Shown: positions 82-23,854 of the stretch, one piece after another
Position numbering within the stretch: the first letter of the stretch is position 1
How the letters are laid out: every line of letters starts with the position of its first letter
Source of the DNA: Horticoccus luteus
GTDB lineage: Bacteria; Verrucomicrobiota; Verrucomicrobiia; Opitutales; Opitutaceae
Direction of reading: 5' to 3'
NCBI RefSeq assembly: GCF_019464535.1
Contig: NZ_CP080507.1
Coordinates: 990,001 to 1,022,000, forward strand
Length of the DNA stretch: 32,000 bases
Notes under the pieces: model-generated
Database searches by the model: none
What the model saw: only the letters and a program-made list of their open reading frames with translations
What the model was told of the DNA's origin: nothing
Position numbers and translations under genes: made by a program

Positions 82-513
82 CTAGCTTCGCGCACCGATC
101 CACACGCCAAGTATGACAAGAGCCACGCCCAGCCACTGATGGATCTGCACGCGTTCACCGAGAAGAAGTGGCGTGAGAGCCAGAGTTAGCACGATCGCCA
201 GACTCATGAAGGGGTAGGCAAAACTAAGATCAGCGCGCGAAACGGCGGCCATCCATGTGAGGGCAGCGGCCCCCGCACACGCAAGGCCGAGCACTACAAG
301 AGGATTACTGAGCGCTTGTATAAGATGAGCCGTCCATCCTTCAGCGCCGCTCCCGAAACTGCCGATCTTCATCATGCCTTTCTTGAGAAGAAGCTGGCCT
401 GAGACGGTGAAAAAAACGGTGAGGAGGATAAACCCAACCCCAGAGGCATTAGTCGACTTCACGTTAGACGATGAATTGCTGGATACATTCGATGACCCGC
501 GCCTGATCTTCAT
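82..513 (-). CDS. Small 4-TM membrane protein of the SMR/EamA (DMT) type, ArnE/ArnF-like polyprenyl-phosphate-aminosugar flippase subunit
   Basis: 143-aa hydrophobic ORF. Motifs TVSGQLLLKKG, FAYPFMSLAIVLT and WLGVALVILGVWIG line up with E. coli ArnE as recalled (SVAGQLCQKQA / IAYPMLSLNFVW / WCGVAFIIGGIVIL). It is the last gene of the long minus-strand operon. The true start may be the GTG at 462, 2 nt past the upstream stop. The ATG at 513 would overlap the aminotransferase by 50 nt. Confidence 0.6.
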   Translation of the reverse strand: MKIRRGSSNVSSNSSSNVKSTNASGVGFILLTVFFTVSGQLLLKKGMMKIGSFGSGAEGWTAHLIQALSNPLVVLGLACAGAAALTWMAAVSRADLSFAYPFMSLAIVLTLALTPLLLGERVQIHQWLGVALVILGVWIGARS

Positions 514-1600
514 CAGAAAGCGTATTGTAAAAAGGCAGGCGGACGAGACGGTCGCTGACGTCTTCGGTCACGGGGCATTGCCCTGGCTTGAAATCCCAGC
601 GGCGGGCGTATTCGGAGAGATGCAAGGGGAGATAGTGAAAGACAGCCGAAATTTGCCGCTCTTTAAGGTGGGCGAGGAATCGCGTTCGTGCTGCAGCTGT
701 GGGCATGAGGAGATAGTACATATGCCAGGCCTGTTCGCAATGTGGAGGAATGAAGGGACGTCGCACATCATTGTGGGCAGCCCAAGATGTGAGCGCTTCG
801 TCATAGCGAAGCCACTTGTCACGCCGGTTGCTTTGGATAGTATCCCAACATTGGAGTTGGCCGAATAAAAAGGCGGCGAGCACGTCGCTCATCACGTAAC
901 TACTGCCAATGTCCACCCACGAGTATTTATCGATCTGGCCGCGAAAGAATCTCGCTCGATTGGTGCCTTTCTCGCGAATGATTTCCGCACGCTCAATCAA
1001 TGCCCGATCGTTGATGAGAAGCGCGCCTCCTTCGCCGCAGGTGATGTTTTTCGTTTCGTGAAAACTTTGCGTCGCAAGATCGCCGAGGGTGCCCAGCCAG
1101 CGTCCGCGATAGCGGCCGAACAAACCGTGCGCGTTGTCTTCCACCACGGCGGCGCCGTGGTGACGCGCGAGAGCCAGCAAGGGGTCCATTTCGCACGCGA
1201 CGCCTGCGTAGTGCACCGGAACGAGCGCCTTGGTTTTTGACGAGAAGAGTGCACCGACTTTGCTTTCATCGATATTGAGCGTATCTGGCCGAATATCGCA
1301 AAAGACGGGCCGCGCTCCGCGGAGCACAAAGGCGTTGACCGTCGAGACAAACGTGAACGCCGGGATGATCACTTCGTCACCGGGTTGGAAGTCGAGCAAG
1401 AGGGCGGACATTTCCAACGCATGAGTGCATGAGGTGGTGACGAGGGCGCGGGGAATGCCCAAGGTGCCTTCGAGCAATTGCTGGCATCGCCGGGAAAAGG
1501 TCTGATCGCCGGCGATCTGTCCGCTCGAAATGGATTGGAAAATAAATTCTAGCTCCCGTCCTTGGAGCGAGGAGCGGTTGAACGGAACAGGGGCGTTCAT
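464..1600 (-). CDS. wecE: DegT/WecE-family PLP aminotransferase (dTDP-4-amino-4,6-dideoxygalactose transaminase-like)
   Basis: Near-colinear with E. coli WecE/RffA from memory: PFN..., RRCQQLLE, PAFTFVSTVNAFVLRGARPVF, VPVHYAGVACEMD, SFHETKNITCGEGG (PLP lysine), ALIERAEIIREKGTNR, FFRGQIDKYSWVDIGSSYVMSD, AVFHYLPLH. Start placed at ATG 1600 (MNAPVPFN...), which forms an ATGA overlap with the upstream stop at 1597. The track start at 1630 is a 5' extension. The nucleotide carrier of the substrate (dTDP vs GDP) cannot be read from sequence. Confidence 0.85.
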   Translation of the reverse strand: MNAPVPFNRSSLQGRELEFIFQSISSGQIAGDQTFSRRCQQLLEGTLGIPRALVTTSCTHALEMSALLLDFQPGDEVIIPAFTFVSTVNAFVLRGARPVFCDIRPDTLNIDESKVGALFSSKTKALVPVHYAGVACEMDPLLALARHHGAAVVEDNAHGLFGRYRGRWLGTLGDLATQSFHETKNITCGEGGALLINDRALIERAEIIREKGTNRARFFRGQIDKYSWVDIGSSYVMSDVLAAFLFGQLQCWDTIQSNRRDKWLRYDEALTSWAAHNDVRRPFIPPHCEQAWHMYYLLMPTAAARTRFLAHLKERQISAVFHYLPLHLSEYARRWDFKPGQCPVTEDVSDRLVRLPFYNTLSDEDQARVIECIQQFIV

Positions 1601-2304
1601 GGATTTGAAATCGAGTGCCAAAGCCAGCAACCGACGGGAGCGGAGAAGCGGGCTCCGAGTTGGGCGTAGATGTTCATAACAGGAGTATTACGCACACTAA
1701 AGGCAGCCTGCCCGACGGTGAACCCGTGGTCCGCATAAAATCGAAGCGCGCGATGATACAGATGGTGACCGGAAATGGTCGAGCCCGCGGCCAGCATGGC
1801 GAGAGCGAGATGCAGCCCTGCGTTGGTGGGTTCGGCGATAAACCAGCCCTGCACGCGTCCAGCAAAGATGATTTGAACGCAAGAAGCCGGACTGCGGGTA
1901 ATCACTTCGTTCGCCCAACGGCTATATCGTTCCGCGAGGCGCGCCTTGTCCGCTCCGGGTAGTTGTAAGAATCGCTCGTGTTCGAAGTGGCGCATTTCGC
2001 CCGCGTTTAGTTGCCAGGGATGGGTCTTTGCACTGTGGCATTCGAGAGGAGCTAGCGAGGGAGACTGGGGCAAACGGGACAGCGACAAGCGAAAGTTAAT
2101 TTGCACATCGACAAAGGCGAATCCGGCTCGGGCCAACAGGAACGGGGAGGGCGACTGGGTGAGTGCCGCCTTGTATTCGACCCAGCTAAATCGGCCCAGA
2201 TCGTGTCGACGTGCGATTTCCTCCTGGTCGAACCAGCGAGCGTCCTCCACGAGTCCCACCGGAGAGCCCCACCAAGCGGTATTTGTTTCGTGCAGTCTAA
2301 TCAC
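1597..2304 (-). CDS. GNAT-fold N-acyltransferase, WecD (dTDP-fucosamine acetyltransferase)-like
   Basis: Same two-domain layout as E. coli WecD as recalled: N-terminal ...TAWWGSPVG..., a central FEHERF... segment and a C-terminal ...GCWLWH matching ...TAYWLYR. It lies immediately upstream of the WecE-like gene, as in wecD-wecE pairs. Start re-assigned to the GTG at 2304, which forms a GTGA overlap with the LuxC-like stop at 2301. The track start at 2358 would overlap by 58 nt. Confidence 0.6.
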   Translation of the reverse strand: MIRLHETNTAWWGSPVGLVEDARWFDQEEIARRHDLGRFSWVEYKAALTQSPSPFLLARAGFAFVDVQINFRLSLSRLPQSPSLAPLECHSAKTHPWQLNAGEMRHFEHERFLQLPGADKARLAERYSRWANEVITRSPASCVQIIFAGRVQGWFIAEPTNAGLHLALAMLAAGSTISGHHLYHRALRFYADHGFTVGQAAFSVRNTPVMNIYAQLGARFSAPVGCWLWHSISNP

Positions 2305-3482
2305 GTGGCGATTTGGACTTCGTCGAAGAGTTGGCGCCAGAAATTCCCGCCGTCCCAAATCGGGCCAAAATGGTGCATCCGACGCAGGGGAACCCAGCGC
2401 TTTATGTCGGTTTGAGCGAGCAGGGCGATCCAGTGGGCAGCCGACGGATCACGTAAGTGATGGCCGACGGTTTGAATATTGGCCGGCAGCGACGCAACGG
2501 CGGCCTCGGGCGTGGCCGAGACGATGGCGAGACTCATCGCGCCCCGCAGAGGGTCTTGTTCGAGCGAGCCAGCTGCCAAAACTGCCGCATTTTGATCGAC
2601 TGTAATCGACTGCCAGCCGTCGGCGAGTGCGAGTTGGTGATGGAGCACGTTCTGCGAAGCGACATGCATCGGCGTTTGCTCGCGTTGGACGGAGGGCCAC
2701 CGGGCCGCGAGTGCATCGCGCAATCTTAGGCAATCGTCGTGCGTACCATCGATTACCACGACACGTCGCGGTGAGGTGCAGCCGGTTTGACCATAGATGG
2801 CGAACACACTGATAAGCGCGTCCACAGCGGCATCGTCCATTGCCGCGAGTTCCACCCACACTTCGGATTGATGGTCGCCGAAGGGGAGGGCGATGCTGTC
2901 GGGGCGATGAGGCAGAGCGTGAATCTCTGTGATGGACGCATCAGAACCGAAAGCGATGCGAACATCTGCTTCCGCGGCCATGGTGCGGTTTCGAGGATCA
3001 AATCGATCAAAATTTGCAACGGTCACCTGGTCGCTCAAATAATGCTGCAGGTCGGACTTCGATGGAAGCTGCCTCCGAGCATAGGTGACGAATGCCTGAC
3101 ATAAGTCCGTGGCCCGAGAGCCCGACTTCACGTGGATTTGCGCGCCGGTCAAGCTGCACAAGATGAGTGTTAACGGACCGAGCAGGCTGACATTATTGGG
3201 CAGCCAAAGGGCGATGGTTGGCCGGGGGCGGAAAAGCGAAACCAGCTGCTGGGGATCACCGCCCTGCCGGCCAAAGGATAGGAGAGCCGGGCGCGCGAGC
3301 TGATCGCCATGAAGGAAATTCACCAAATAGGCCCATTCGTCGCGCGTGAAGGCGGGATCGACCCTGCGAACCATGGTGTAGCGGAGACTCTCCCAATCCG
3401 AAATGCGAATCGACAGAGCGAAGGGGAGGGCGACGGCTACGGTGCCCGCCGAATTTTGGAAGTACTCCAAGTGATCACACAT
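2301..3482 (-). CDS. LuxC-family acyl-CoA/acyl-protein reductase (aldehyde-forming)
   Basis: 393 aa. Contains WLPNNVSLLGPLTLILCSLTGAQIHVKSGS and a YGQTGCTSPRRVVVI segment carrying the ALDH-superfamily catalytic Cys, typical of LuxC-like reductases. Overlaps the LuxE-like gene by 8 nt. Confidence 0.75.
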   Translation of the reverse strand: MCDHLEYFQNSAGTVAVALPFALSIRISDWESLRYTMVRRVDPAFTRDEWAYLVNFLHGDQLARPALLSFGRQGGDPQQLVSLFRPRPTIALWLPNNVSLLGPLTLILCSLTGAQIHVKSGSRATDLCQAFVTYARRQLPSKSDLQHYLSDQVTVANFDRFDPRNRTMAAEADVRIAFGSDASITEIHALPHRPDSIALPFGDHQSEVWVELAAMDDAAVDALISVFAIYGQTGCTSPRRVVVIDGTHDDCLRLRDALAARWPSVQREQTPMHVASQNVLHHQLALADGWQSITVDQNAAVLAAGSLEQDPLRGAMSLAIVSATPEAAVASLPANIQTVGHHLRDPSAAHWIALLAQTDIKRWVPLRRMHHFGPIWDGGNFWRQLFDEVQIAT

Positions 3483-4521
3483 TCGCGCACCCTCGAACTT
3501 CGGCTTTAGGAATTCTACCGTGTAAATCGAAATGCGGGCCGGCTCGGCCGCACGGGCATGGAGTCGAATGAAGCACCCCGATATCCTCCGTCAATACGTT
3601 GTGGTAGGGCGCTCCAAAGCTGAGGGTGTTCATCAACTGCAGCATGCCTGGCTTTTCTCGGACGCAATCGAGCGTCCATGGATCGCGCGTAAGGGCCAGC
3701 GCCCATCGCGGGATGTGGCGGTGACCGGCTGGACATAGGGGAAAGATGACGCCCACCTGTTCCACCAGTCCGTAAAAATCGAGCACTTGGGAATTAGGCG
3801 CACCGGTCGCGATCAGCCGGCGGTCGAAGGCCGCTCGGTCGACGGCCTGCGCCTCGAGTTTTTTCCAACCCCCGCTATGAACGAATTGGATCCGAGTGCG
3901 GGCGAGCACTTGGCGGACAGTATCGGGAATCTCCGCAGTGGCCCAAGTTTGCCATAGGAGCCACGTGAAGCCGTAGACGCGCACATGATCGTGTTGTGCG
4001 CACACCGCGGCAATTTGGTCCCACAAAAGGCGTGGACCGGCGGGATCTTCCGCCATCACGAAGTGCAACGCCGAAGCCAGAGGACGCAAACTCAACGCTG
4101 CCGCGATGCGGGCGCTGGTTTCTCCTCGCTGGAGAAGAGATTTTGCATGATCGAGTACGATCAACGGGCGCAACTCGCCACCCAACGCGTCCCGCAAGAT
4201 GCTGGAGCTGCTCGCGGCTTGGAGTGTGGAGCTACGTTCATCGAGCGAAATGCGACTGTTACCTGCGTTGGAGGTTGCGGAACTCTTGAGCACGCGTTGG
4301 TGCCGCACGCCGGCGCCGGCGGTCTGCCACAGCCTTTTTTTGAAGACTCCCACGTGAAGGAAGGGAAGATCTTCTACGCGTGTAGAGTTTTTCCAGTCCG
4401 GCCAAATCGCGCGGTAGCCAGGACATCCGTCGATATGCCACTGCGTGAGCGCATTCATCTCCGCTAAAAAAGCGGCGTCGTCGCGTTCCGAAAAAGGGGG
4501 AAAGTGGAGAAGCTCACTCAT
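3475..4521 (-). CDS. LuxE-family acyl-protein synthetase (ATP-dependent carboxylate activation)
   Basis: Colinear with recalled Vibrio LuxE landmarks. LPFLHVGVFKK matches IPVFPTSMFK. VHSGGWKK matches ITGGGWK. IPRWALALTRDPWTL matches PPWVYARALDPETL. VLTEDIG matches IVTDDIG. The C-terminal RGCA matches KGCA. Start set to ATG 4521 (MSELLHFPPF...), an ATGA overlap with the Fe-ADH stop at 4518. The track start at 4611 would overlap by 94 nt. Confidence 0.75.
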   Translation of the reverse strand: MSELLHFPPFSERDDAAFLAEMNALTQWHIDGCPGYRAIWPDWKNSTRVEDLPFLHVGVFKKRLWQTAGAGVRHQRVLKSSATSNAGNSRISLDERSSTLQAASSSSILRDALGGELRPLIVLDHAKSLLQRGETSARIAAALSLRPLASALHFVMAEDPAGPRLLWDQIAAVCAQHDHVRVYGFTWLLWQTWATAEIPDTVRQVLARTRIQFVHSGGWKKLEAQAVDRAAFDRRLIATGAPNSQVLDFYGLVEQVGVIFPLCPAGHRHIPRWALALTRDPWTLDCVREKPGMLQLMNTLSFGAPYHNVLTEDIGVLHSTPCPCGRAGPHFDLHGRIPKAEVRGCANV

Positions 4522-5438
4522 GGGGTGAACTCGAGGAAGAATTCCCGATCGGCCGGACGAACCATACTGCAATTCGTCCGCGAGCAGCGGTCGCGAATGA
4601 CTGACGTCCAATGATCGGCCAGGAAGGGAAGGAGCGTGGCATAAGCCGGCGGGTCGAAAAACTCCCTCAGGCGGGTGTCGATAGAATCAAGGGTAATGAA
4701 ATGCTGGGCCAGCAACTCGCCAGGCTTGGTGCTCGTCGTGCGATTGAATCGAAAGACAGGGAGGAGAAATGTCGCACAGAGCTTCGCGTGTCCCCATGAG
4801 GGATCGCGGAGCATTGGTTCCAAGGTATGTGCAAGGCCATGAATCAACCCGACGCTCGAGCGCGCTTGTCCCGCGGCGGCAAGCGCGCTGACGTGAAACC
4901 ATTCGGGGTGGTGAGCGAGGGGTAATACGAGGAGGCGCCGAAGCAAATCGGCGAGGTCTTGCCGCAGTTCTTGCGAAGCAAGAGGGGAAAGAAAGCCCTC
5001 GAGCGCGTGGGCCCAAGTGTCTCCGCAAGCGGCGAAAATTCTATCGCCGGGTAGACTGACGGCAAGTTCAGGATGTTCGATGATAAGATCGGGCCGCAGC
5101 CGAGAATTGAGGTAAATGCGCTTATGATTCGCCTCGTTCACCACTGCAATCGGCGACGCTTCGGCGCCGCTGCCCCAGATCGTGGGCAGCGCAGCCAGTT
5201 TCCCCGCCGGGTAGGTCTGACGAAACAGCTTAGCCTCGTCGATCATGGTGCCGCCGCCGGCCACAACGAGCCAGCCGCCCTCTTGCAAAAATGCCGGCCG
5301 GTCGATTAACGGCCATAGTCGCTGATCGGCCAGCTTGCCGCGAACGGACGGGGTTGCCCAGAGTGCCGCCGCCGCACCGATCGAAGATCGAGCTTCCGCG
5401 AGCGTGCAACGCGGAGGAAGTTCAATCATCGAACGCAA
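4518..5438 (-). CDS. Iron-containing (group III) alcohol dehydrogenase family protein, short form
   Basis: Carries the GGGTMIDEAKLF nucleotide-binding motif, the metal-ligand region ACGDTWAHALEGF and the histidine motif GLIHGLAHTLEP. At 306 aa it is shorter than typical ~380-aa family members (N-terminal part missing). The start is uncertain within the first 4 codons. Confidence 0.75.
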   Translation of the reverse strand: MRSMIELPPRCTLAEARSSIGAAAALWATPSVRGKLADQRLWPLIDRPAFLQEGGWLVVAGGGTMIDEAKLFRQTYPAGKLAALPTIWGSGAEASPIAVVNEANHKRIYLNSRLRPDLIIEHPELAVSLPGDRIFAACGDTWAHALEGFLSPLASQELRQDLADLLRRLLVLPLAHHPEWFHVSALAAAGQARSSVGLIHGLAHTLEPMLRDPSWGHAKLCATFLLPVFRFNRTTSTKPGELLAQHFITLDSIDTRLREFFDPPAYATLLPFLADHWTSVIRDRCSRTNCSMVRPADREFFLEFTP

Positions 5439-5667
5439 TACCCTTAGAGCTAAGGATGGTCATGACGTGCTGCACGCCGGTGATGCTGTTAGCCTCGTCC
5501 GGGCTGAAATGGTAACCGAAAATTTGCTGCACACCGACAGCCAGAGCCACGACACCCAATGAGTCCCACGTCTCCACCTCGTCACGCCGCAAATCGAAAC
5601 GAAATTCGTCAGGCGAAAGGAGAAAGACATCTTGGATCAAGGCGCGGAGTTTTTCGCGATTGGACAT
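5422..5667 (-). CDS. Acyl carrier protein
   Basis: 81 aa with the phosphopantetheine attachment motif ETWDSLGVVALAV. The Ser codon lies at 5560..5562. Sits between the AMP-ligase and Fe-ADH genes. Confidence 0.85.
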   Translation of the reverse strand: MSNREKLRALIQDVFLLSPDEFRFDLRRDEVETWDSLGVVALAVGVQQIFGYHFSPDEANSITGVQHVMTILSSKGIAFDD

Positions 5668-5671
5668 GTGA

Positions 5672-6853
5672 TTAGGCTAATTGCCGCCAGACGACGGCTT
5701 TTCCGGCCAAATCCGTCAAGGCTCTGATATCCGTTTTCCCATTCGGCAACAGCGGCAGGGCAGAGAGCGTCTCAATGCGCAATGGCCAATGGGCTCGCGG
5801 GTGCTTGCGCCGCAAAGCGAGGAGGACTCCGTTGATTGCTTCGCGGGTCGCGAGGGGAGTGAGGACTAACACGCACCCATCTTCTCCGGTCGGATCTCTT
5901 TCGCGATAAAATGCGCATTGACCAGACCACGGAGCGGAGACGGTCGCGAGCAAAGCGAGCAGGGAGACCTTTTCGCCATGTCGTTTGAAAATGTCGTTAC
6001 CCCGGCCAAGGAGTCGCCATGCGCCGTCACCGTCTTGCGCAGCCAAATCTCCCGTGGGGAGCCATTCGTCGGGTTGAATTTCACGGCAGACCTGATTCTC
6101 GATGAGAGCAATGGCGCGGTAAGGACTGCGGAAGAAGAGCCGATCTGCGCCGTCAGTTTGAAGTTCTACGCCCGGCAGCGGCTGGCCAATGTTAGCGGGA
6201 TCGGCAGCCGCTTCGGCGGATCGCAACGCGAGTCGCGGCATGGCTTCGGCACAGCCGTAGTTGTTGTAAACGCGAGCTTCGGGGAACAGTCGCTTGAGCT
6301 GGGGTAGCTGTTCTTGGGGGAAGCGGCCTCCTGCGAAGTGAATGCGCCAAACACCTGGAAAAGTCTCAGTGGGAAATGCGTTCACAAGGAGCGGTACCTG
6401 CACGCCCACCAGGCAAAGCATAGCCTGATGTGCCGCACGGAGGTTTTCGCGGAGGGCATGAGGATCTGCCAAGCCCCGCGTAGGGACAAGCCGGCGCCTA
6501 AATTGCCGGGCCCAGAGCCACTGGTTCACAAAAGAGTAGCTATAAGAGAGCGGGAGGAGAAGAAGCGTTTCCTCGACCACATCGCTCGATTGCAGGTGGT
6601 GGAGGATGGCGACGAGGGCATCGGCGCGCCGACGTTCGCCAATGACGAGCTTCGGAGAGCCGGTACTTCCGGAGGTCAGCAGGATGAAATGCCATTCCCG
6701 CAAGTGCGGGGGCAGCGTCGCTGCACAGTCGGCGAGCCATTGGTCGTCGACGCTCAGTTTGGCCGAGACAAGAACGAAGGTCGCGGGGAGCGTCCATGCG
6801 CGTTCAAGAGCTTGCAGGTCGAAACTAGGCGTATCCTCGCGCAGGATCTTCAT
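5672..6853 (-). CDS. AMP-dependent synthetase/ligase (short adenylating enzyme, probable acyl-ACP ligase)
   Basis: AMP-binding signature LLTSGSTGSPKLV, plus YGCAE, LPTGDL, GRGNDIFKRHGEKVS and LPNGKTD. At 393 aa it is shorter than classic acyl-CoA synthetases. ATGA overlap with the GT2 stop at 6850. Confidence 0.85.
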   Translation of the reverse strand: MKILREDTPSFDLQALERAWTLPATFVLVSAKLSVDDQWLADCAATLPPHLREWHFILLTSGSTGSPKLVIGERRRADALVAILHHLQSSDVVEETLLLLPLSYSYSFVNQWLWARQFRRRLVPTRGLADPHALRENLRAAHQAMLCLVGVQVPLLVNAFPTETFPGVWRIHFAGGRFPQEQLPQLKRLFPEARVYNNYGCAEAMPRLALRSAEAAADPANIGQPLPGVELQTDGADRLFFRSPYRAIALIENQVCREIQPDEWLPTGDLAAQDGDGAWRLLGRGNDIFKRHGEKVSLLALLATVSAPWSGQCAFYRERDPTGEDGCVLVLTPLATREAINGVLLALRRKHPRAHWPLRIETLSALPLLPNGKTDIRALTDLAGKAVVWRQLA

Positions 6854-7875
6854 AATGAGCGAGGCAGTTGCTCAGAAGAAACGTGGCCCCGAATCGTATA
6901 CGCCGGTTTTTCCATAATGCGGAAATGCATCCGCGCGAGGTATTCGCCAATAACCCCGAGGGCAAAAAGCTGGACCCCAGCAAACATGGCTATGATGGAA
7001 GCGAGAAATGGGAACCCGGCGACCGCGCTGCCGAAGAGCATGTAACGGCCGACCACATAAGCCAGTACGGTGATGCCGAGAGCGGTGAAGGCGAAGCCCA
7101 TCATGCTGGCGAATTGAAGCGGCAGGACCGAAAAGCCCGTGGTCATGTTCAGTGCATGGCGCACGAGCTTTCCGAAAGTGTAATTCGATTTACCTTCAAA
7201 GCGTGGAGCATGGAGCACCTGCACCGAAGTGAAGCGAGTAGTGGCCCAAGTGAGCAGGACATCGATGGAGACGGTCGGGCTGCCGTAGTTTGCGAACGCC
7301 TGCCGCAGGTCGGTCCGAAAAACACGGAAGGCGCTTGTTTGCGCGGCGGTTTTGGCTCCCATGGCGCTCCGCAGGGCGAGTTTGGTGATAAGAGAGGCCA
7401 GATCGCGGAAGAGACCGTGTTGTTCTCGTGCGGGAGTGCCATAGACTACGTCGACGTCCTCCTCCAGCGCGGCCAAGAGCTTGTCGATTTCCGTCGGCGG
7501 ATGTTGTAGATCGTCATCCAGAGTGACGGTGACGTTGTAGCGCGCGTTCCGAAGGCCCGCGAGAAGTGCGTTATGTTGCCCGTAGTTTCGAAACAGGCAA
7601 ATCCCTCGCAGCCATGGGCGACCGGCCGCTAGTTCCGTGATGATGCTCCAGCTCGCATCATGGCTGCCGTCATTTACCAAAATCACTTCGAATGGCGTTT
7701 TCGCCTGCAGGAACGCCTGTTCGACGGCATCCACGAGCATAGGCAACGTTTTCGCGCTGTTGTAAACGGGGACGATGATGGAGTGACCAGCTGTGGTCGT
7801 TGCCCCGGTGCTCGATGCGGCATTCATGATGCTAAGTTGGCAAAACCTCATTTGGAGAGAGAGCGCACAAGCCAA
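6850..7875 (-). CDS. GT2 polyprenyl-phosphate glycosyltransferase (ArnC / GtrB / DPM1-like)
   Basis: Contains SIIVPVYNSAKTL, VILVNDGSHD, FRNYGQHNALLAGL and LDDDLQHPP, plus two C-terminal TM helices ending in GVIGEYLARM, the hallmark of ArnC/GtrB-type enzymes. The true start is probably ATG 7827 (MNAASS...) rather than 7875. Confidence 0.85.
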   Translation of the reverse strand: MACALSLQMRFCQLSIMNAASSTGATTTAGHSIIVPVYNSAKTLPMLVDAVEQAFLQAKTPFEVILVNDGSHDASWSIITELAAGRPWLRGICLFRNYGQHNALLAGLRNARYNVTVTLDDDLQHPPTEIDKLLAALEEDVDVVYGTPAREQHGLFRDLASLITKLALRSAMGAKTAAQTSAFRVFRTDLRQAFANYGSPTVSIDVLLTWATTRFTSVQVLHAPRFEGKSNYTFGKLVRHALNMTTGFSVLPLQFASMMGFAFTALGITVLAYVVGRYMLFGSAVAGFPFLASIIAMFAGVQLFALGVIGEYLARMHFRIMEKPAYTIRGHVSSEQLPRSL

Positions 7876-7876
7876 T

Positions 7877-9760
7877 TTAGCGTTCTCGCCCTGCAGGGGA
7901 CGCCAGTGCGTAATAGCGAGCGAGAGGGCGAAGGGGCGGCCGCACGGCTGGCTGCGAGGATTTCAAGCGGAGGGTCCCCCCTTCGACGGCAGCTGTCCCC
8001 TGCCAGCGCGTCCACCCGGTCGCGGTTCGCTCCAATACGATCACGTTGCCATCCTGGGGCTGCTGTTCGGCGGATTTTGGAAGCATGAAATAGTCGGTCG
8101 GCTTCCATTGAAAATGCCCGTCACGGAGGCTGATGGTTTCGGCGAGCGTGGGCGCGCACAGGATCACAGACGGCGGAATTTGTAGCGGAGATCGCGCGGG
8201 CCGGTCGCTCGCTGAAGCGACAACGGCGTTGTAGTCGTAAAGCGCGCCCGGGGTGATTTCAGAGGTCCAACTGAAGCAATCGGTGTAGCGAAAGTGTGGT
8301 AATTTGCGATCGACCACGACGACGAAGGTGCGCTCGCCGGCATCTTCGCAGAGTTGGTCAAAAGCGCGCCAAAACGTCTTTTGGAAGCGCCAGACCCCGC
8401 AGTAATCCTGTTGCACGATCGACCCAAATGCCGCCAACGACCCAAGCGTTGCGCCCAGCAGTATCCGCAGGGCGAACTGCGCACCTCGCCAATTGACAAG
8501 AGTCATTCGGTCCACGGCAAAGCCGATGCACAAAGCACCTCCTGCGCTGGGCACGCAATGCAATCCTGACATGAAGCCCGTGCTCCATGTGCCGGGGAAC
8601 CAAGGGGCCCGAAAGAAAGAGGCGTAGGCACCCGCCAACACGAGCGCACCGGCGACGAATACCCGCCAAGACCCAAGCTTAACTGCGGCGCCGTTGGGCG
8701 CAGTCGGAACTTGCACGGGCGACGAGTTCTTGGGCCGAATTAGGCGATGGCCGAACTGGAATAAAAGAGTGACAGCGCTCCCAACCGCGAGAAAAACCAC
8801 GACGGACTCACCGCTAACATGATGCCACGGCACCATGATTCTTTCTCCAATGAGTTTAAATTGGGTGACCGTGCCGGTCCCTGCGGCCATCAACGCCCGC
8901 CGTGCGACTTCCGCCGGGTGTCCGAACAATTCTCCGACCCGTTCTTGCCCCCAAGGATCGCCAATTCGAACGCGCAATACCAGGACTGTGGCAACGGACC
9001 CGATCCAGAGAAGAATTGTCCGCAACGGATATCCCATCCACTGTCGTTTCCGCCATTCGAGAGTTAATGCAAACGGCAGGAGTAGCGCCGCAACACTTGC
9101 TGGTTCGCCCATCAATGTCGTCACGACCACTCCGGCTACATACCAAAGCCATCGGCCGTGAATCGCTGCGAATGCGCTAAGTAATGCGCAAAGCAACGAT
9201 ATTTGTGTATTATACGCAAAAACAAGCTGTGCCTGTACAACGGCGACGGGCGCAAGTGCGTAGAACGCAGCGACGCCATAGACGCCGGCGAGAGAGAGAA
9301 ATCGGTTCGACAACCGTGCCAAAAGGTAACCGTTGGTGGCAAAAACAACTAATCCGAAGAGATGCAGGGCGAGCAGGCCGCCCGACTTTCCCACCAAGTA
9401 GGGTAGCAGGCTGAGATTGAGCCCCATCCCCAGAGGCCGTCCTTGAGGCCATTTTGTGAAACAAAAATTAACCCAAGCCCATTCCTCACCCCAAGGGCGG
9501 TTAAGCGCAGTGCCAATAAATGCGACGTCGTCGCCGTATAGACCAAAACCGGCGACATGAGTGAAATACCCGGCCCAGGCAATAAGCGCTGTGAAGACCC
9601 AAAGTGGCCAACCTATAACTTGACCGGCACACACGAGGGGCCGCAATTTTTGGAGCATTTTTTGTCCTGAAGCGTTGCCCGTAGCGGACATCGTAAATGG
9701 CGTTGGAGGGACTAAGGTGCGTCGCTTAACGCGCTGAGCTGCGTTGCGGCCAGCCGACAT
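7877..9760 (-). CDS. Polytopic membrane protein, GT-C-like (ArnT/PMT-style) glycosyltransferase candidate with a C-terminal soluble domain
   Basis: About 11-12 predicted TM helices in the first ~440 aa. An acidic motif (LYGDDVAFIG) sits in the first extracytoplasmic loop, as in GT-C enzymes. A ~170-190 aa non-hydrophobic C-terminal domain follows. It lies directly upstream of an ArnC-like GT2. I recognise no specific family. Alternative starts at ATG 9691 or 9658 would remove the 35-nt overlap with the methyltransferase gene. Confidence 0.5.
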   Translation of the reverse strand: MSAGRNAAQRVKRRTLVPPTPFTMSATGNASGQKMLQKLRPLVCAGQVIGWPLWVFTALIAWAGYFTHVAGFGLYGDDVAFIGTALNRPWGEEWAWVNFCFTKWPQGRPLGMGLNLSLLPYLVGKSGGLLALHLFGLVVFATNGYLLARLSNRFLSLAGVYGVAAFYALAPVAVVQAQLVFAYNTQISLLCALLSAFAAIHGRWLWYVAGVVVTTLMGEPASVAALLLPFALTLEWRKRQWMGYPLRTILLWIGSVATVLVLRVRIGDPWGQERVGELFGHPAEVARRALMAAGTGTVTQFKLIGERIMVPWHHVSGESVVVFLAVGSAVTLLFQFGHRLIRPKNSSPVQVPTAPNGAAVKLGSWRVFVAGALVLAGAYASFFRAPWFPGTWSTGFMSGLHCVPSAGGALCIGFAVDRMTLVNWRGAQFALRILLGATLGSLAAFGSIVQQDYCGVWRFQKTFWRAFDQLCEDAGERTFVVVVDRKLPHFRYTDCFSWTSEITPGALYDYNAVVASASDRPARSPLQIPPSVILCAPTLAETISLRDGHFQWKPTDYFMLPKSAEQQPQDGNVIVLERTATGWTRWQGTAAVEGGTLRLKSSQPAVRPPLRPLARYYALASPAGRER

Positions 9761-10475
9761 TTATCGAAAATGGCCGTCCGAATTCCGAATAGTCGTCTTT
9801 CGTTATCGGTTTCCAATTGGAGTCGTAGGCTTGTTGCGACATGACGTAGCAATTCGCGTCGTTTTGGATGGTGCTGATTGCTGTTTCGAGAGTGTCGGCT
9901 GAAATCTGGGAATAGAGATACGGGACCAAACCGTTGATCCAGGACGTCCCGCCGGGGCGGAGAATGGCGTCGAAGCAGTGGAGCGAGTAGCCACCTGGCT
10001 TCAGGACCCGATTCATGTCTTTGAGGATATTCTCCCGGATGGTCGGGTCTTCCGGAGTGTGCTCGAGCGCAGAAATGGAAAACACGAAATCGAAGTAGCC
10101 GTCCGACAGCTCGGGACTGAACGAGCCCATGTAGTCGTAAACGATGCGATAGTCGGGCGAGATAAATTTCGTCGGGCCATTACCGAGACCCTCGCATTTG
10201 TCCGCGTTCCAGCATTCGTAATCACGAGAGAGGAATCGCAGAACACGGCTGTCGCCGCCGCCAACTTCCAGGAGGCGTGATCCCGGCGGTACATTATTGC
10301 GGATGAAAAGATATACGAGATAGTCCTGATAGACTTTCAGGTCGCAAATCGTGGGATCCGGATCGCCGACGTTGTAGGACTGAAAGGGTAGATCGCGGAA
10401 GAGTTCGAAGTGGGACAGCTTCGAAAATGAGAATTCGGCGAGATTGCCGGGATGCGGCCATTGCGGATTGTTCAT
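9726..10475 (-). CDS. Class I SAM-dependent methyltransferase
   Basis: Motif I RLLEVGGGDSRVL, acidic post-I residue (WNAD), FDFVFSISALEH and LKPGGYSLHCF. ATGA overlap with the upstream glycosyltransferase stop (10472..10475). Confidence 0.8.
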   Translation of the reverse strand: MNNPQWPHPGNLAEFSFSKLSHFELFRDLPFQSYNVGDPDPTICDLKVYQDYLVYLFIRNNVPPGSRLLEVGGGDSRVLRFLSRDYECWNADKCEGLGNGPTKFISPDYRIVYDYMGSFSPELSDGYFDFVFSISALEHTPEDPTIRENILKDMNRVLKPGGYSLHCFDAILRPGGTSWINGLVPYLYSQISADTLETAISTIQNDANCYVMSQQAYDSNWKPITKDDYSEFGRPFSINVGWPQRSSAR

Positions 10476-11536
10476 GTCGAAGAAACGGCGCGGCTCTCAT
10501 TGGCGCTGGCTTGGGCGAGGGCGCGCGTGGCAGCGAGGAGTTGGCGGCGCTTGTCGGCGACCTCGCGTTCGAGTTCGTGCAGGCGGCGATCCTTGCGCAG
10601 GAGTTCGGCGCGAGCGTGGCCGAGTTTGCCCTCGGGCGAGAGAACCTGCTCGACCCACCACGTTTGGTGCAACGACTCCAGAAAACGGAGAAAGAAGATG
10701 ATGTCGTCGACGACCGGATTCGGTTCGAGGGGAATCGTTTCGTGCGGCGGGATCCGGAGAGGTGCGACGGGGAGATTAGCCATCGGGCTCTCGAAATTCG
10801 TATGCGTGGCCTCCGGCCCGTAGCCGAGGTTGGAGATAAGATTTCGGCCCGGCATGACGTGACAGGCGCCGGCTCTCCAAGAATGAAAAAAGACTTGGAA
10901 ATCCCACGTGTCGAAGACTCCGGCTTTGAGCGCACGGTAGACTTCGCGCCAATAGGCCGCCTGCACTGGGTTCGCGTGAGTGCGCTCCAAGACCGACCAC
11001 CAACCCGCTTCGTCAAGTTCGTCCAGGGAGTGCGAATACGTGGTCCAGGTGCGGCGCCATGTGGCCCAGCCCCACATCTGGAAATATTTGGAAACGTAGT
11101 GGCTTTGCGTGCAGGCAAATTCGGGAGGGAGAAAATGAGTGCCCGCGATCGTCGCCACGCGGGGTTCAAAACGATAACGTTGAAGAAGTGTTTCGCAGTA
11201 AGAGAAAAAGTCCGGGTGCGGAAGACAGTCGTCCTCCAAGATGATGCCTTCCTCGACGTGGCTGAAAAACCAGGAGATGGCCTCGCTGACCGCTCGCCCG
11301 CAGCCCGCATTGTGATCGCGAAACAGGTACTTCACTTCGCACGGCCAGTCTATGTCGGCGATGATTGCGCGCGTGGCTTTGACCAAGTCAGCTTCGCCTG
11401 CTTTGTCGTCGCGGGCGCCATCAGCGGCGACAAATAGTTGCCGCGGCTGCTGGGCACGAATGGAGGCAAAGACCTGCCGCGTAGGTGCCGGGCGGTTGAA
11501 GATGATGAAAAGGATTGGCGTGCTGAACTCCGACAT
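10472..11536 (-). CDS. GT-A fold nucleotide-diphospho-sugar glycosyltransferase (GnT-I/GT2-like) with a C-terminal coiled-coil tail
   Basis: The N-terminus PILFIIFNRPAPTRQVF...LFVAADGARDD and the motif GIILEDDCLPHPDFF are typical of this GT-A group. The last ~60 aa (AELLRKDRRLHELEREVADKRRQLLAATRAL) are heptad-like and charged. Confidence 0.6.
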   Translation of the reverse strand: MSEFSTPILFIIFNRPAPTRQVFASIRAQQPRQLFVAADGARDDKAGEADLVKATRAIIADIDWPCEVKYLFRDHNAGCGRAVSEAISWFFSHVEEGIILEDDCLPHPDFFSYCETLLQRYRFEPRVATIAGTHFLPPEFACTQSHYVSKYFQMWGWATWRRTWTTYSHSLDELDEAGWWSVLERTHANPVQAAYWREVYRALKAGVFDTWDFQVFFHSWRAGACHVMPGRNLISNLGYGPEATHTNFESPMANLPVAPLRIPPHETIPLEPNPVVDDIIFFLRFLESLHQTWWVEQVLSPEGKLGHARAELLRKDRRLHELEREVADKRRQLLAATRALAQASANESRAVSST

Positions 11537-11610
11537 GAGCCGCTTTCACTCCAAGAAGCGGGTCCGGTGAATGCAAGCGGCTTCAATCGAACGTGCAGCC
11601 GGCAGCCAAC

Positions 11611-13566
11611 TTATCCGCGCAGCCACGCCCGCAGTCGGTTGAAGACGCTTAGTGCAGAGGGAGCAGGAGGTGCCGACCACGCGAGTAAGAGGGCGACGGG
11701 GCGGCCGAAGTCGTCGTAAGGCCGCTTAGTCACCGCGGCCCATTGCAGATCGTACGCTTTGCGGCTCATAGTATAGAGATCCGGATCTGCCAAAAGCGAA
11801 TCCAGCTCCCATGAAGCTAATCCGAAGGCGTCGCGAAGAAAGGCGGCGGCGGGACCTGTCCAAAAATAGTCCGGATGAATGACGGCTGTTGCGCCATGAA
11901 GATTGAGGCCGCCGGGTTTGATGTGTCGTTTCAAACGCGCGACCAAGCAGGCCAGTTGTTCCGCCGTCGTCACTTGGTCGAGCCACGATCCGCTGAGGAT
12001 CGCGTCAAATTTCTCGGGGACGCCGGATGAAGGGGTGGCGGCACCGAGTGCTTCGATCGCGTGGAAGTTTTCGCGATCAACAAGCCAGTCGTTGGTGTTG
12101 GCGGGATGCCACAAACGGTGCCCGCGATTCAACAGGTGCGTCCAGTGGCCGGCCGCGTCGTCAAGAATAAGGAAATCGCCGGGCGTGCGCGTCGCAGTCA
12201 GCGCGCCCGTGGCAACCGCGGCGCGCAAAAATACCCCGAGCTCGATTTCTTCCAGGGATGGCAGGGCCATCCCCTGAGCCACCGCCCACCCGTGATGACG
12301 ATTGCGAAGATGAACCAAGGCGAGAGGTGCGGGCGTATCATTTGCTGGCGAAGGGCGCGTCCAAGGCGACGTCGCAAAGGGCTCGATACGTTCGAGCCAG
12401 CCAGGAGGAAACGTTTCGGGAGGAAACGCAGCATGGAAAGGGGCCGGTGCTGACGTGCCTTTGGCGAGCGATGACCAAATCCATTCGCCGGCGTCAGGAA
12501 GCACCAAAGCCGGCGACCAATGGCGGATCGCTTGCTGGATTTTTCGGCGAACGGCGGCGTTCGTGAGCGCCTGAATCGTTTGGATCAGTGCGTGCGGTTG
12601 ATAGGCGCAGCATTGGCCCGTGCCCAAGCGGCAAAGAAAGCGGCCGGCGGCTGTATCGGGACTGCCGAGTAGCAACACGGGCGTATCGGTGGCCGTGTGG
12701 AGGAAGACCAACCGGGACGGCAGGCTTAAATGAGAAAACGCGGGGTTATCATCGTGTTGATCAAGGCTGCCGGAGGGGACGACGATGAAAGGATAGGAGG
12801 CGAGCGCCGCGATGAGATCTTCTTCGGGGAGGAATCCCATGGTGCGAATGTGGTCGACCTCCCATTCTTCGGGCGCGCCGGTCAGCCAGGGGGCTTGGGT
12901 TCCGTTGCCATACCAATCGATATGCAGCCCCGTGGCGCGCGTGAGCTCGCGCAATTGATCGAACCGCGCGGCCGTCCAGACGTTCCCCAGCATGGCCGCG
13001 CGCAGCGGCTCGCCAGGCTCAGTTTCCCAATAGCAGGGGATGAGTGGAACCGCTTTTGTGACGACGGGGGGCAGCAACTCCAGCGGATACGAGAAACGCC
13101 GAGCGTAGGCAGCGCAGAGTTCGGGTGAGATACCCAGCCGCAAGTCGGAGGAGGCGAGTAACCGAGCAGGCCAGTGCGCGGGCACCTGCGGCGTGAAGAC
13201 GGTCTGGTCATCCATGATGAACGTGCAGAGCGGCGCTCCGGTGAGTTCTTTTGCCAGGATGCCGTGAATGAAATCCTCCCGATAGTAAGGCACGCAAAGA
13301 ATGCGCCGGATGCGGCGGCCAGCGAGAAGGTCGGCGAGCCGGCTTCGCGTGTCAGGGACGGTCCGAAACTGCGAACGCAGCTCCCAGTGCTCTTGGCCAA
13401 AGGATTCCTGGCCGCCGTAGAGTGAGCGGGAACGAAGGGTGATGATGCCGGAAGAGTCCGGAAAAAACCGTTGGAGAAGAATGCCAACGCCGTGATGGTT
13501 GTTTACCTCGACGGCGCTGATGAGCAGGTCAGGCGAGTCCATTACAGCGCGGGGCGCAATGGACAC
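11611..13566 (-). CDS. Two-domain protein: N-terminal GT-B-like glycosyltransferase candidate fused to a C-terminal methyltransferase-like domain
   Basis: The segment aa ~240-305 (FLPEEDLIAALASYPFIVVPS...LPSRLVFLHTATDTPVLLLGS) resembles the C-terminal Rossmann half of GT4-type enzymes. The segment aa ~420-632 is paralogous to the 9726..10475 methyltransferase. PGDFLILDDAAGH aligns with PGSRLLEVGGGDS. IKPGGLNLHG aligns with LKPGGYSLHC. YTMSRKAYDLQWAAVTKRPYDDFGRP aligns with YVMSQQAYDSNWKPITKDDYSEFGRP. Confidence 0.5.
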   Translation of the reverse strand: MSIAPRAVMDSPDLLISAVEVNNHHGVGILLQRFFPDSSGIITLRSRSLYGGQESFGQEHWELRSQFRTVPDTRSRLADLLAGRRIRRILCVPYYREDFIHGILAKELTGAPLCTFIMDDQTVFTPQVPAHWPARLLASSDLRLGISPELCAAYARRFSYPLELLPPVVTKAVPLIPCYWETEPGEPLRAAMLGNVWTAARFDQLRELTRATGLHIDWYGNGTQAPWLTGAPEEWEVDHIRTMGFLPEEDLIAALASYPFIVVPSGSLDQHDDNPAFSHLSLPSRLVFLHTATDTPVLLLGSPDTAAGRFLCRLGTGQCCAYQPHALIQTIQALTNAAVRRKIQQAIRHWSPALVLPDAGEWIWSSLAKGTSAPAPFHAAFPPETFPPGWLERIEPFATSPWTRPSPANDTPAPLALVHLRNRHHGWAVAQGMALPSLEEIELGVFLRAAVATGALTATRTPGDFLILDDAAGHWTHLLNRGHRLWHPANTNDWLVDRENFHAIEALGAATPSSGVPEKFDAILSGSWLDQVTTAEQLACLVARLKRHIKPGGLNLHGATAVIHPDYFWTGPAAAFLRDAFGLASWELDSLLADPDLYTMSRKAYDLQWAAVTKRPYDDFGRPVALLLAWSAPPAPSALSVFNRLRAWLRG

Positions 13567-13569
13567 GCT

Positions 13570-15060
13570 TTAGCGAGCCTTGGTCAACTCATTGCGTTGC
13601 ACTTCCAACGTGCGGATATGTTCCGCTTGTTCGCGGGAGACATTTTGGAGTCGGCTGACTTCCCGTTGGGTTTCGGCGAGATGACGTTCAAGCCGCTCCC
13701 GCTCATTCTGCAAAGTGGTGATGAACGCCGTCTGTTCGGCGATGATTTCATCCTGGCGCGCCACGCGCGTGCGCAGTTGGACGAGGGGACCTTCGGCGGA
13801 GGTCAGCTCATCGCGTTGCGTTTCCAATGATCGGATATAGCGCAGTTGTTCGTCGCCGACGGCGGCCTGCCGATCCGTTTCCTGACGGAGCTCAGCCAGA
13901 TAGGTTTCCAGTTGTTGGCGCTGCGCCTGCAAATTTGTGATCAGAGCCGATTGTTCGGCGACGGTCTGATCGGCGCCTGCGGCGTGCGTCCGCAACCGAC
14001 CGATCCAGCCAGTCGCGGACTGAGCGTTCTCGAATTCGGCGATATAGTCGCGTTGCTGGCTGACGGTTGCGGCGAGTTGGTGCACCTGTTGGTTGAGCGC
14101 GTTGACATCGTTTTGTGCGCGGCCTCCGGATTCCCGGAGCGCCGCGATGAGGGAGTTCTGCTCCCCCAGCAAGCGGGTCACGCGGGCCAGTTCGCCGTCG
14201 AAATCGTCGCGTGAAAAAAGCCCCGCTTGAAACTCCGAAATTTTGCGCCGGATCAATTCGCGATCATCGGCGTCAGAAAATGCGGGCTCGGCCTCAAGAA
14301 GCCGGAAGCGGACGATGAGCTCGACGAGCTGATGAGCCTGGCGCTCGCGGCTCCAGATGCCGCCGCCGTGCCGGCGATAGGCGGCCATGTTACGATCCAG
14401 AAAGTAGAGCGGGCCGTGGCTGGCCAGATGAAGATCCAAGAAGAGATCACATGGCCGCCGAAGAAACCAGTCGGGCAGCGGATCGTAACGATCGCGACGA
14501 AACACGAGCGAGCAGGTGGGTTCCTGCGAAAGGAGCGTGTCGAGCACATCGCGTCGTGTGAAGGTGGTCTGGGCCGACTGAAAATAGCTCTCGGAGAGGA
14601 CGCGACCATCAGCGTCGACCAAGCGGGCGTTGTGGAAGCAAGCGCTGCACTCCGGGTGTCGGCGGAGAATTTCAATTTGCGCTTCCAGCTTGTCGGCTTC
14701 GATCCAAAAGTCGTCACCTTCACAAAGGGCGACGAATTCGCCGCGACTTTCGCGGCCGAGCAGGCGGAGAGGAGAGAGGCCTGCGCTCCATTGGTTTTGG
14801 GTCTGAAGAATCGGTCGGATGATGTTTGGATAACGGGCCGCATAGTCGCGGATGATGGCTTGGGTGTCATCGGTGGACGCATCGTCGTGGATGATGATCT
14901 CCACCGGGAAGGTGGTTGCTTGGCGCAGGAAGCCTTCGAGACATTCCGACAAGAACGCCGCGTGGTTGAAGGTCACGCAAAACACGGTCACGACCGGCGG
15001 TGTGCCCGCCGGCCAGGTTTGTTGAGCGAGCGGTAGAGGGCGGAGAGTGGTCGACGTCAC
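13570..15060 (-). CDS. GT2 glycosyltransferase with a long C-terminal coiled-coil extension
   Basis: GT2 core: VVTVFCVTFNHAAFLSECLEGFLRQ, IIIHDDASTDDT, ALCEGDDFW. The ~200 C-terminal aa are Q/E/R/L-rich and heptad-like, and contain an internal duplication (see the repeat feature). Confidence 0.85.
   Translation of the reverse strand: MTSTTLRPLPLAQQTWPAGTPPVVTVFCVTFNHAAFLSECLEGFLRQATTFPVEIIIHDDASTDDTQAIIRDYAARYPNIIRPILQTQNQWSAGLSPLRLLGRESRGEFVALCEGDDFWIEADKLEAQIEILRRHPECSACFHNARLVDADGRVLSESYFQSAQTTFTRRDVLDTLLSQEPTCSLVFRRDRYDPLPDWFLRRPCDLFLDLHLASHGPLYFLDRNMAAYRRHGGGIWSRERQAHQLVELIVRFRLLEAEPAFSDADDRELIRRKISEFQAGLFSRDDFDGELARVTRLLGEQNSLIAALRESGGRAQNDVNALNQQVHQLAATVSQQRDYIAEFENAQSATGWIGRLRTHAAGADQTVAEQSALITNLQAQRQQLETYLAELRQETDRQAAVGDEQLRYIRSLETQRDELTSAEGPLVQLRTRVARQDEIIAEQTAFITTLQNERERLERHLAETQREVSRLQNVSREQAEHIRTLEVQRNELTKAR
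13582..13998 (-). repeat. Internal tandem duplication (two 66-aa units with a 7-aa linker) inside the coiled-coil tail of the GT2
   Basis: Unit 1 (13801..13998) is RLRTHAAGADQTVAEQSALITNLQAQRQQLETYLAELRQETDRQAAVGDEQLRYIRSLETQRDELT. Unit 2 (13582..13779) is QLRTRVARQDEIIAEQTAFITTLQNERERLERHLAETQREVSRLQNVSREQAEHIRTLEVQRNELT. They align without gaps, with roughly 45% identity counted by hand. Confidence 0.7.
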
Positions 15061-23838: not shown

Positions 23839-23854
23839 ACAGGCGCATCGTCGC

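Follow-up and report, generated by a model that had tools for sequence, protein, structure and literature searches.

The operon and its gene families

We analysed a 32,000-nt window of the genome of the soil bacterium Horticoccus luteus (Opitutaceae, Verrucomicrobiota); all coordinates given here are positions in this window, the whole stretch of DNA under study. On its minus strand, at 464-6853, seven open reading frames (ORFs) encode an adenylate-forming ligase (AMP-ligase), an acyl carrier protein (ACP), an iron-type alcohol dehydrogenase (Fe-ADH), LuxE- and LuxC-like proteins, a WecD-like GCN5-related N-acetyltransferase (GNAT) and a WecE-type aminotransferase. A first-pass annotation, which placed the seven ORFs at the same coordinates, had read them as a cassette that makes a non-acetyl N-acyl group and attaches it to a 4-amino-4,6-dideoxyhexose. 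After ORF starts had been refined by direct inspection of the sequence, the run of seven consecutive minus-strand genes stood, but not the claim that every junction measures 4 nt or less, as two overlaps, ACP/Fe-ADH and LuxE/LuxC, are of 8 nt. The tight coupling of genes is real and extends past the cassette on both sides, so that the seven genes had been correctly recognised but their limits drawn too narrowly: an ArnC-like family 2 glycosyltransferase (GT2), an ArnE/ArnF-like subunit and a probable glycosyltransferase of the GT-C type belong to the unit as well (Table 1). The LuxE-like protein is identical to K0B96_03925, and the 604-627-aa membrane protein to K0B96_03950.

Table 1. Genes of the operon and of the adjoining part of the window, with the number of related loci (of 51) in which each cassette gene was found
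Feature	Position	Strand	Size, junction or match	Related loci
ArnE/ArnF-like EamA membrane protein	82-462	-	~126 aa; GTG start 1 nt past WecE stop	
WecE	464-1600	-	378 aa; ATGA overlap with WecD-like gene	
WecD-like GNAT	1597-2304	-	235 aa; GTG start; GTGA overlap with LuxC	34/51, directly after LuxC
LuxC	2301-3482	-	393 aa; 8-nt overlap with LuxE	50/51
LuxE	3475-4521	-	348 aa; ATGA overlap with Fe-ADH	51/51
Fe-ADH	4518-5429	-	303 aa; 8-nt overlap with ACP, ATGATTGA	48/51
ACP	5422-5667	-	81 aa; 4-nt gap after AMP-ligase	49/51
AMP-ligase	5672-6853	-	393 aa; ATGA overlap with stop of upstream GT2	47/51
ArnC/GtrB-type GT2	6850-7875	-	two C-terminal transmembrane helices; start codon uncertain	
Polytopic membrane protein, candidate GT-C	7877-9760	-	604-627 aa; ~9 or more transmembrane helices	
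S-adenosylmethionine (SAM) methyltransferase	9726-10475	-	249 aa	
Unassigned 651-aa protein	11611-13566	-	C-terminal ~190 residues homologous to the 249-aa methyltransferase (BLASTP E = 3e-14, 24% identity)	
GT2 with long C-terminal coiled coil	13570-15060	-	matches SMC/Rad50 models	
DesI-like aminotransferase	15749-16903	-	beside gmd; DesI (2PO3) 393 bits versus solved perosamine synthases 197 bits	
Wzt ATPase	16927-18321	-	weak Wzt_C carbohydrate-binding domain, 24 bits versus cut-off 30	
GDP-mannose 4,6-dehydratase (gmd)	19256-20245	-	521 bits versus equivalog cut-off 415	
gmd paralogue	20242-21324	-	324 bits, fails cut-off 415; adjoins gmd	

All seven family labels hold in searches with Pfam, NCBIfam, family profiles and Foldseek. 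Residue conservation was scored across roughly 70 relatives per family with a threshold of at least 95%. The ligase matches PF00501 with 59.7 bits over profile positions 158-353 only and is without the ~100 N-terminal residues of typical ANL enzymes; its A3, A5, A8 and A10 motifs are kept at this threshold (69 relatives). Its best NCBIfam matches are TIGR03098 (amino-acid adenylation domain) and the AmcH 2-oxoglutaryl-ACP ligase, and its nearest solved relatives are DltA and the adenylation (A) domains of non-ribosomal peptide synthetases, that is, loaders of carrier proteins. We propose that this short adenylate-forming enzyme loads an acid onto the ACP. As a single sequence the ACP found no Pfam match, and NCBIfam ACP models reached it with E = 0.001; the profile of its family, by contrast with the single sequence, matches solved ACPs (E = 6.5e-7) with the serine of the WDSL motif aligned to the phosphopantetheine serine, and at least 95% of 73 sequences retain W34-D35-S36. 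The protein is a putative carrier dedicated to the cassette, with Ser36 as the predicted attachment site.

For the reductive enzymes, too, the residues expected to act in catalysis are in place. LuxE matches PF04443 with 128 bits, and its alignment to Photobacterium LuxE (7XC6_E) runs as far as the C-terminal Gly-Cys, with Cys345 invariant among relatives by the conservation threshold. LuxC matches PF05893 with 58.3 bits; since phmmer returned no solved relative from the PDB, Cys235 was assigned from family conservation and from its motif, YG..GCTSP, which is kept in at least 95% of 72 relatives and bears out the earlier statement that the catalytic Cys is retained. The Fe-ADH scores 33.7 bits against PF00465 (cut-off 31.3), and its alignment to solved Fe-ADHs begins only at their residue ~90-110. 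A length of ~300 aa is typical throughout the Fe-ADH family of this cassette, and the Asp/His/His/His metal ligands and the GGG motif are retained in at least 95% of relatives. The short enzyme is proposed to carry out the step from aldehyde to alcohol.

LuxC and LuxE owe their names to fatty-acid reduction, and similar genes of flagellin glycosylation islands have been annotated in print as 'fatty acid synthesis' (PMC7874193, PMC4875605), so that the cassette might be taken to convert a long-chain fatty acid to a fatty aldehyde or alcohol, or to a lipidated 'liposugar'. We regard this as very improbable. Both proteins lie far below the luminescence equivalogs (LuxE reaches 47 bits against an NCBIfam cut-off of 550, and LuxC does not match the NCBIfam LuxC model), Pfam and NCBIfam scans revealed no fatty-acid synthase elongation genes in the operon, and no LuxD or LuxAB match was obtained among the 20 minus-strand or flanking genes scanned. 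A monocarboxylic acid reduced to its alcohol would leave the N-acyltransferase no group to transfer, nor would it account for a second activating enzyme, for the ACP or for an acyltransferase so tightly coupled to the set. Moreover, the sole chemically known product of this gene set, that of Vibrio cholerae O1, is a C4 dihydroxy-acid (PMC3441752).

The two amino-sugar genes differ in how closely they match named families. WecE matches the DegT family of Pfam (293 bits) and the NCBIfam equivalog PRK11706 (538 bits, cut-off 375), and among solved proteins it scores highest against E. coli WecE (4PIW, 416 bits), compared with ~165 bits for ArnB and ~152 for perosamine synthase. At equivalog level it is a predicted 4-aminotransferase of the dTDP-4-keto-6-deoxyhexose type. 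By contrast with WecE, which passes its NCBIfam model, the label of the WecD-like protein rests on a remote profile match and on fold. As a single sequence it found no Pfam match, and a chlorophyllase match in the PDB, spurious and likewise from the single sequence, was dropped in favour of profile and structure model. The NCBIfam WecD model (PRK10975) gives 17 bits against a cut-off of 219, which sets the protein in a family apart from WecD. A profile of 45 relatives matches only E. coli WecD (2FS5), over its full length and with E = 3.6e-4; in an AlphaFold2 (AF2) model with a predicted local distance difference test (pLDDT) score of 96, the top Foldseek match is again 2FS5, with a template-modelling (TM) score of 0.70. 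Compared with E. coli WecD, the donor loop has two residues inserted. These data suggest a two-domain WecD-fold GNAT of a separate, unnamed family, with ~18% identity to WecD, and we propose it as the N-acyltransferase.

Three further genes of the unit resemble parts of lipid-carrier systems. The GT2 matches PF00535 with 92.8 bits and NCBIfam ArnC with 174 bits over positions 8-314 of 316, without reaching the equivalog cut-off of 529. Two hydrophobic C-terminal helices can be read from its protein sequence, and a crude hydropathy count gives its orthologues 2-3 transmembrane segments. The small EamA protein (PF00892), a candidate flippase subunit, matches the NCBIfam models of ArnF (E = 2.4e-11) and of ArnE (E = 1.3e-8) but reaches neither equivalog cut-off; the H. 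luteus locus has this one ArnE/F-like gene only. In other loci, homologues lie just upstream of the GT2 (L009 and L078) or beside it (L024).

The 604-627-aa membrane protein found no Pfam match even at E = 1, and a word-index search gave only 5 homologues; its family comprises 977 cluster representatives and has an invariant Y-x-D-D motif after the first transmembrane helix. Among 68 members, 3 match PMT_2 and 3 match DUF2079. The family profile had no match in the PDB. An AF2 model of poor quality (pLDDT 54) gave ALG9, STT3, EmbA/B and ALG6 as top Foldseek matches, with E = 0.02-0.3. Many related loci have large polytopic proteins next to the GT2; two such proteins match PMT_2. As phmmer of the H. 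luteus protein against the membrane proteins of those loci returned no match, they were excluded as its orthologues. We consider the protein a probable divergent GT-C glycosyltransferase that belongs to no named family. In combination, the ArnC-like GT2, the ArnE/F-like subunit and this probable GT-C point to a periplasmic route on a lipid carrier rather than to incorporation of the sugar into the polymer exported by Wzm/Wzt.

Conservation of the five-gene core and its acyltransferase partners

Relatives of LuxE were sought in one genome per species, and 330 genomes were positive. They include Verrucomicrobiota, Acidobacteriota, Planctomycetota, Myxococcota, Chloroflexota and Actinomycetota, as well as Gamma-, Alpha- and Betaproteobacteria and a few archaeal contigs from metagenome-assembled genomes. 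Two of the contigs, binned as Promethearchaeota and Poseidoniales (L041, L074), carry the cassette at 49-51% LuxE identity, through either horizontal transfer or a binning error. Vibrio is absent from the best 80 loci. Neighbourhoods were counted in 51 loci that are non-redundant and extend for at least 4 kb to each side. Relatives of the cassette proteins are nearly all annotated as hypothetical, and literature searches found no description of the cassette with a WecD-like or ArnC-like partner.

The order ligase-ACP-ADH-LuxE-LuxC is constant (47-51 of the 51 loci), and the position directly behind LuxC is most often taken by the WecD-like gene. Fifteen of the 17 loci that lack this gene were inspected, with Pfam searches on the ORFs of five. 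Four of them place another type of N-acyltransferase just downstream of LuxC, sometimes with a DegT gene: RimJ-type GNATs in L071 and L065, a PglD/NeuD-type LbH protein with a MaoC protein and DegT in L077, and an LbH acyltransferase in L033. A tblastn match to the hexapeptide acetyltransferase of the window occupies the same position in L040. Because different acyltransferases fill the slot after LuxC, the five-gene core behaves as an acyl-donor module, and we are more confident of this part, a predicted portable module feeding N-acyltransferases, than of the complete pathway set out below.

This exchange of partners also bears on whether the WecD-like protein is an ordinary acetyl-CoA enzyme that makes dTDP-Fuc4NAc, with the cassette serving another target such as a glycan O-ester or a lipid. 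Its only detectable relative, E. coli WecD, does use acetyl-CoA, and the donor cannot be read from sequence. We nevertheless judge this arrangement quite improbable, given the separate family indicated by the WecD score, the insertion in the donor loop, the overlap of the WecD-like start with the LuxC stop, the adjacency of the two genes in two-thirds of the loci (34/51) and the substitution of other acyltransferases elsewhere.

The partners of the WecD-like gene are themselves unevenly distributed. An ArnC-like GT2 of at least 45% identity is present in 21 of the 34 loci with the WecD-like gene and in none of the 17 without it (Fisher p ~1e-5, phylogeny ignored); for WecE the corresponding counts are 20/34 and 2/17 (Fisher p = 0.002, likewise with phylogeny ignored).

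A tblastn search of plasmids with LuxE returned distant relatives only (26-35% identity). One of these, at 4048-11994 of the Rhizobium anhuiense plasmid pRA_T24_2 (L088), is a distant version of the module with an LpxA-like LbH acyltransferase, that is, one of the acyl-ACP type. The locus also contains a 79-aa hypothetical protein (likely an ACP), an AMP-binding protein, a glycosyltransferase, DegT, LuxC, a short-chain dehydrogenase/reductase (SDR) and LuxE, whose annotation reads long-chain fatty acid--CoA ligase. The pairing of the cassette with an LpxA-like transferase and DegT would count for the acyl-donor reading. At 8923-13800 of the Salmonella enterica plasmid CP053580.1 (L087), a LuxE-like gene adjoins an ~800-aa AMP-binding protein and a PaaK-family ligase, with an HlyD protein and a peptidase-domain ABC exporter nearby; LuxC and sugar genes are absent at this locus, where the LuxE-like enzyme is put to another use, possibly to modify a peptide.

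A predicted route to an N-hydroxyacyl amino sugar

From the families, the conserved residues and the gene neighbourhood, we infer that the operon makes an N-(hydroxyacyl)-4-amino-4,6-dideoxyhexose that is sent to the periplasm on a lipid carrier. To this reading as a whole we give about an even chance, and less to the lipid-carrier leg and to the identity of the acid. The presence of two ATP-dependent carboxylate activators together with a carrier, a thioester reductase and an alcohol dehydrogenase, all with intact catalytic residues, makes a diacid the simplest substrate. WecE would convert dTDP-4-keto-6-deoxy-D-glucose, supplied by RmlA/B encoded elsewhere, to the dTDP-4-amino sugar. The A-domain-like ligase would adenylate a small dicarboxylic acid at one of its carboxylates and load it onto Ser36 of the ACP; malate, succinate, acids of the aspartate or 2-oxoglutarate type and similar compounds are candidates. 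LuxE would then adenylate the remaining free carboxylate and hold the acyl group as a thioester on Cys345, from which Cys235 of LuxC would receive it for reduction with NAD(P)H to the aldehyde. Reduction by the Fe-ADH would give the alcohol and thus an omega-hydroxyacyl-ACP, for example 2,4-dihydroxybutyryl- or 4-hydroxybutyryl-ACP, and the WecD-fold GNAT would move the hydroxyacyl group onto the 4-amino group. Finally, undecaprenyl phosphate would receive the acylated sugar from the ArnC-like GT2, the ArnE/F-like protein would help in flipping, and the GT-C-like protein would join the sugar to an acceptor in the periplasm; plausible acceptors are the Wzm/Wzt-exported polysaccharide, lipopolysaccharide core and lipid A.

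The first-pass annotation had already proposed reduction of a carboxylate followed by N-acylation. This logic agrees with the conserved neighbourhood and with the genes present, which do not fix the order of steps. In particular, the free diacid might be reduced by LuxE, LuxC and the Fe-ADH to a hydroxy-acid first and be loaded onto the ACP by the ligase only afterwards. The gene content is compatible with both orders, canonical LuxE works on free fatty acids, and RfbL of V. cholerae has been described as activating 2,4-dihydroxybutanoic acid, which is already reduced (PMC12208996). We think this order unlikely all the same. An untethered diacid has two carboxylates, and the choice between its ends would then be left wholly to enzyme specificity; in addition, the invariant position of the ACP between the ligase and the reductive enzymes fits chemistry on the carrier, although this is weak evidence.

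Several observations weigh against the route with tethered reduction and a lipid carrier. The window does not contain rmlA and rmlB to supply WecE, and the WecD-like protein could still use an acyl-CoA donor. An ArnE/F homologue lies within 5 kb of the core in only 2 of the 51 related loci. The signals behind the GT-C assignment are weak, and hhalign of the membrane protein against the PMT_2-positive neighbour from L037 gave no match. The statistics of co-occurrence, moreover, take no account of phylogeny.

Upstream of the operon lie further glycan genes: gmd and a paralogue of it, a DesI-like aminotransferase, a hexapeptide acetyltransferase, glycosyltransferases, methyltransferases and Wzm/Wzt. 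The polysaccharide made by these genes may be the acceptor. DesI is a dTDP-4-keto-6-deoxyglucose 4-aminotransferase. The second aminotransferase of the window had been listed as the counterpart of a perosamine synthase; we rejected it as a clear member of that group, as it is closer to DesI than to the solved perosamine synthases (Table 1). Since its NCBIfam DesI match (500 bits) is below the cut-off of 650, its nucleotide-sugar substrate is uncertain. The gmd paralogue may have a different activity, for example as a 4-reductase, and the 651-aa protein may be an enzyme of chain termination or modification that contains a domain derived from a methyltransferase. The features of the coiled-coil GT2 and of Wzt are reminiscent of O-polysaccharide systems with chain-length measurement and recognition of the terminus. 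On the plus strand, downstream of the glycan genes and judged from translations only, ORFs at 21191-25794 resemble a TolC/HlyD/FtsX-permease/ABC-ATPase efflux system, and the operon at 26156-31676 resembles alternative complex III, with a multihaem cytochrome, a large Fe-S/molybdopterin-like subunit and a polytopic subunit.

Comparison with known systems

With LuxCDE of luminescent bacteria the operon shares membership of LuxE and LuxC in their Pfam families, the C-terminal Cys of LuxE and the conserved Cys of LuxC. Unlike LuxCDE, it is without LuxD and luciferase and adds an ACP, a second ligase and an alcohol dehydrogenase, and its substrate is likely to be a short diacid rather than myristate. 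A WecE equivalog and the two-domain WecD fold are common to the operon and to the enterobacterial common antigen pathway of E. coli. The E. coli WecD, however, relies on acetyl-CoA, whereas the WecD-like protein of H. luteus is coupled to a predicted supply of acyl-ACP.

The Arn (L-Ara4N) system offers a parallel to the lipid-carrier leg in its gene types: a DegT aminotransferase, N-acylation before transfer to the lipid (in Arn, formylation by ArnA), an ArnC-like GT2 and an ArnE/F-like protein. A large polytopic protein stands in place of ArnT, or of GtrC in the three-component Gtr systems of glycan modification. In contrast to Arn, the sugar would be a dTDP-6-deoxyhexosamine and the acyl group would be built on an ACP; ArnA and ArnD are absent, the GT2 falls below the ArnC equivalog cut-off, and one ArnE/F-like gene replaces the Arn heterodimer. 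In the proposed scheme, N-acylation by the GNAT would replace formylation by ArnA.

Flagellin glycosylation islands of Aeromonas (group II) and Enterobacteriaceae contain an ACP/SDR/AMP-ligase/LuxE/LuxC set that has been read as fatty-acid synthesis, and there, too, the set lies beside a GT2 (fgi-1) and amino-sugar genes (PMC7874193, PMC4875605). They differ from the H. luteus operon in having an SDR instead of the Fe-ADH and a target sugar of the pseudaminic-acid type. Similar SDR-type loci are present on Ponticoccus and Rhizobium plasmids, with LuxE 29-35% identical to the protein of the window. The flagellin glycan of Aeromonas piscicola AH-3, whose island has the ACP, SDR, AMP-ligase, LuxE and LuxC, includes an unidentified 102-Da unit and a 376.14-Da pseudaminic acid derivative (PMC7874193). 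By calculation, a dihydroxybutyryl residue (C4H6O3) has a mass of 102.03 Da, and Pse5Ac7Ac with one acetyl so swapped has a mass of 376.15 Da. This agreement is a coincidence of masses only, yet it is in keeping with the chemistry proposed here. The reading of the H. luteus operon suggests that flagellin-island genes labelled 'fatty-acid synthesis' may make short hydroxyacyl decorations, not lipids.

In V. cholerae O1, the N-acyl group is needed for assembly of the O-antigen, and the O1 antigen is the receptor of lytic cholera phages. This antigen carries 3-deoxy-L-glycero-tetronate on perosamine, and its genes VC0248-VC0252 were assigned by homology alone (PMC3441752). They correspond to wbeK-O (rfbK-O), in which the five families recur, LuxC and LuxE as a fusion (PMC3441752, PMC9915646, PMC12208996). 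In 2025, RfbL was still said to load 2,4-dihydroxybutanoate 'putatively' on CoA or RfbK, with reference to Morona et al. 1995 (PMC12208996). Since 1995, the biosynthesis of the N-acyl group has been no more than a proposal from sequence. At the level of domains, the literature bears out the V. cholerae precedent invoked in the first-pass annotation (PMC3441752, PMC12208996). Both systems place ACP, AMP-ligase, Fe-ADH, LuxE and LuxC domains in one operon in near-identical gene order, and both have an acyltransferase adjoining genes for a 4-amino-4,6-dideoxyhexose together with Wzm/Wzt. Going by published descriptions, WbeN is an ~825-aa fusion, a fact that argues for channelling from LuxE to LuxC, whereas the H. 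luteus proteins are separate. The H. luteus ligase (393 aa, WbeL 471 aa) and Fe-ADH (303 aa, WbeM ~374 aa from 1125 nt) are shorter (PMC3441752, PMC9915646). The transferase in H. luteus has the WecD fold, and the amine would come from a WecE-type dTDP enzyme, by contrast with the GDP-perosamine synthase of V. cholerae; in H. luteus, an ArnC-like, flippase and GT-C set is attached as well. Likened by domains, not by sequence comparison, the H. luteus cassette is a variant of the never-reconstituted tetronate scheme of V. cholerae.

The H. luteus-type family would offer the same chemistry as V. cholerae in separate, small and probably soluble proteins, and their availability from many organisms makes reconstitution practical. 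A conserved gene set that hundreds of environmental bacteria carry as 'hypothetical' is thereby linked to a concrete, testable product, and a new undecaprenyl-phosphate-linked donor and a new GT-C family are indicated as possibilities. A broader and rather doubtful extension is that at least 330 species share an unnamed surface-decoration system, in which a dTDP-made N-hydroxyacyl sugar is handed over to undecaprenyl phosphate by the ArnC-like enzyme and transferred by a new GT-C family. If this were true, the five-gene module would also explain the tetronate of V. cholerae O1 and the 102-Da and 376-Da moieties of Aeromonas flagellin, and a hydroxyacyl group built on a carrier protein would take the role that formyl has in the Arn pathway.

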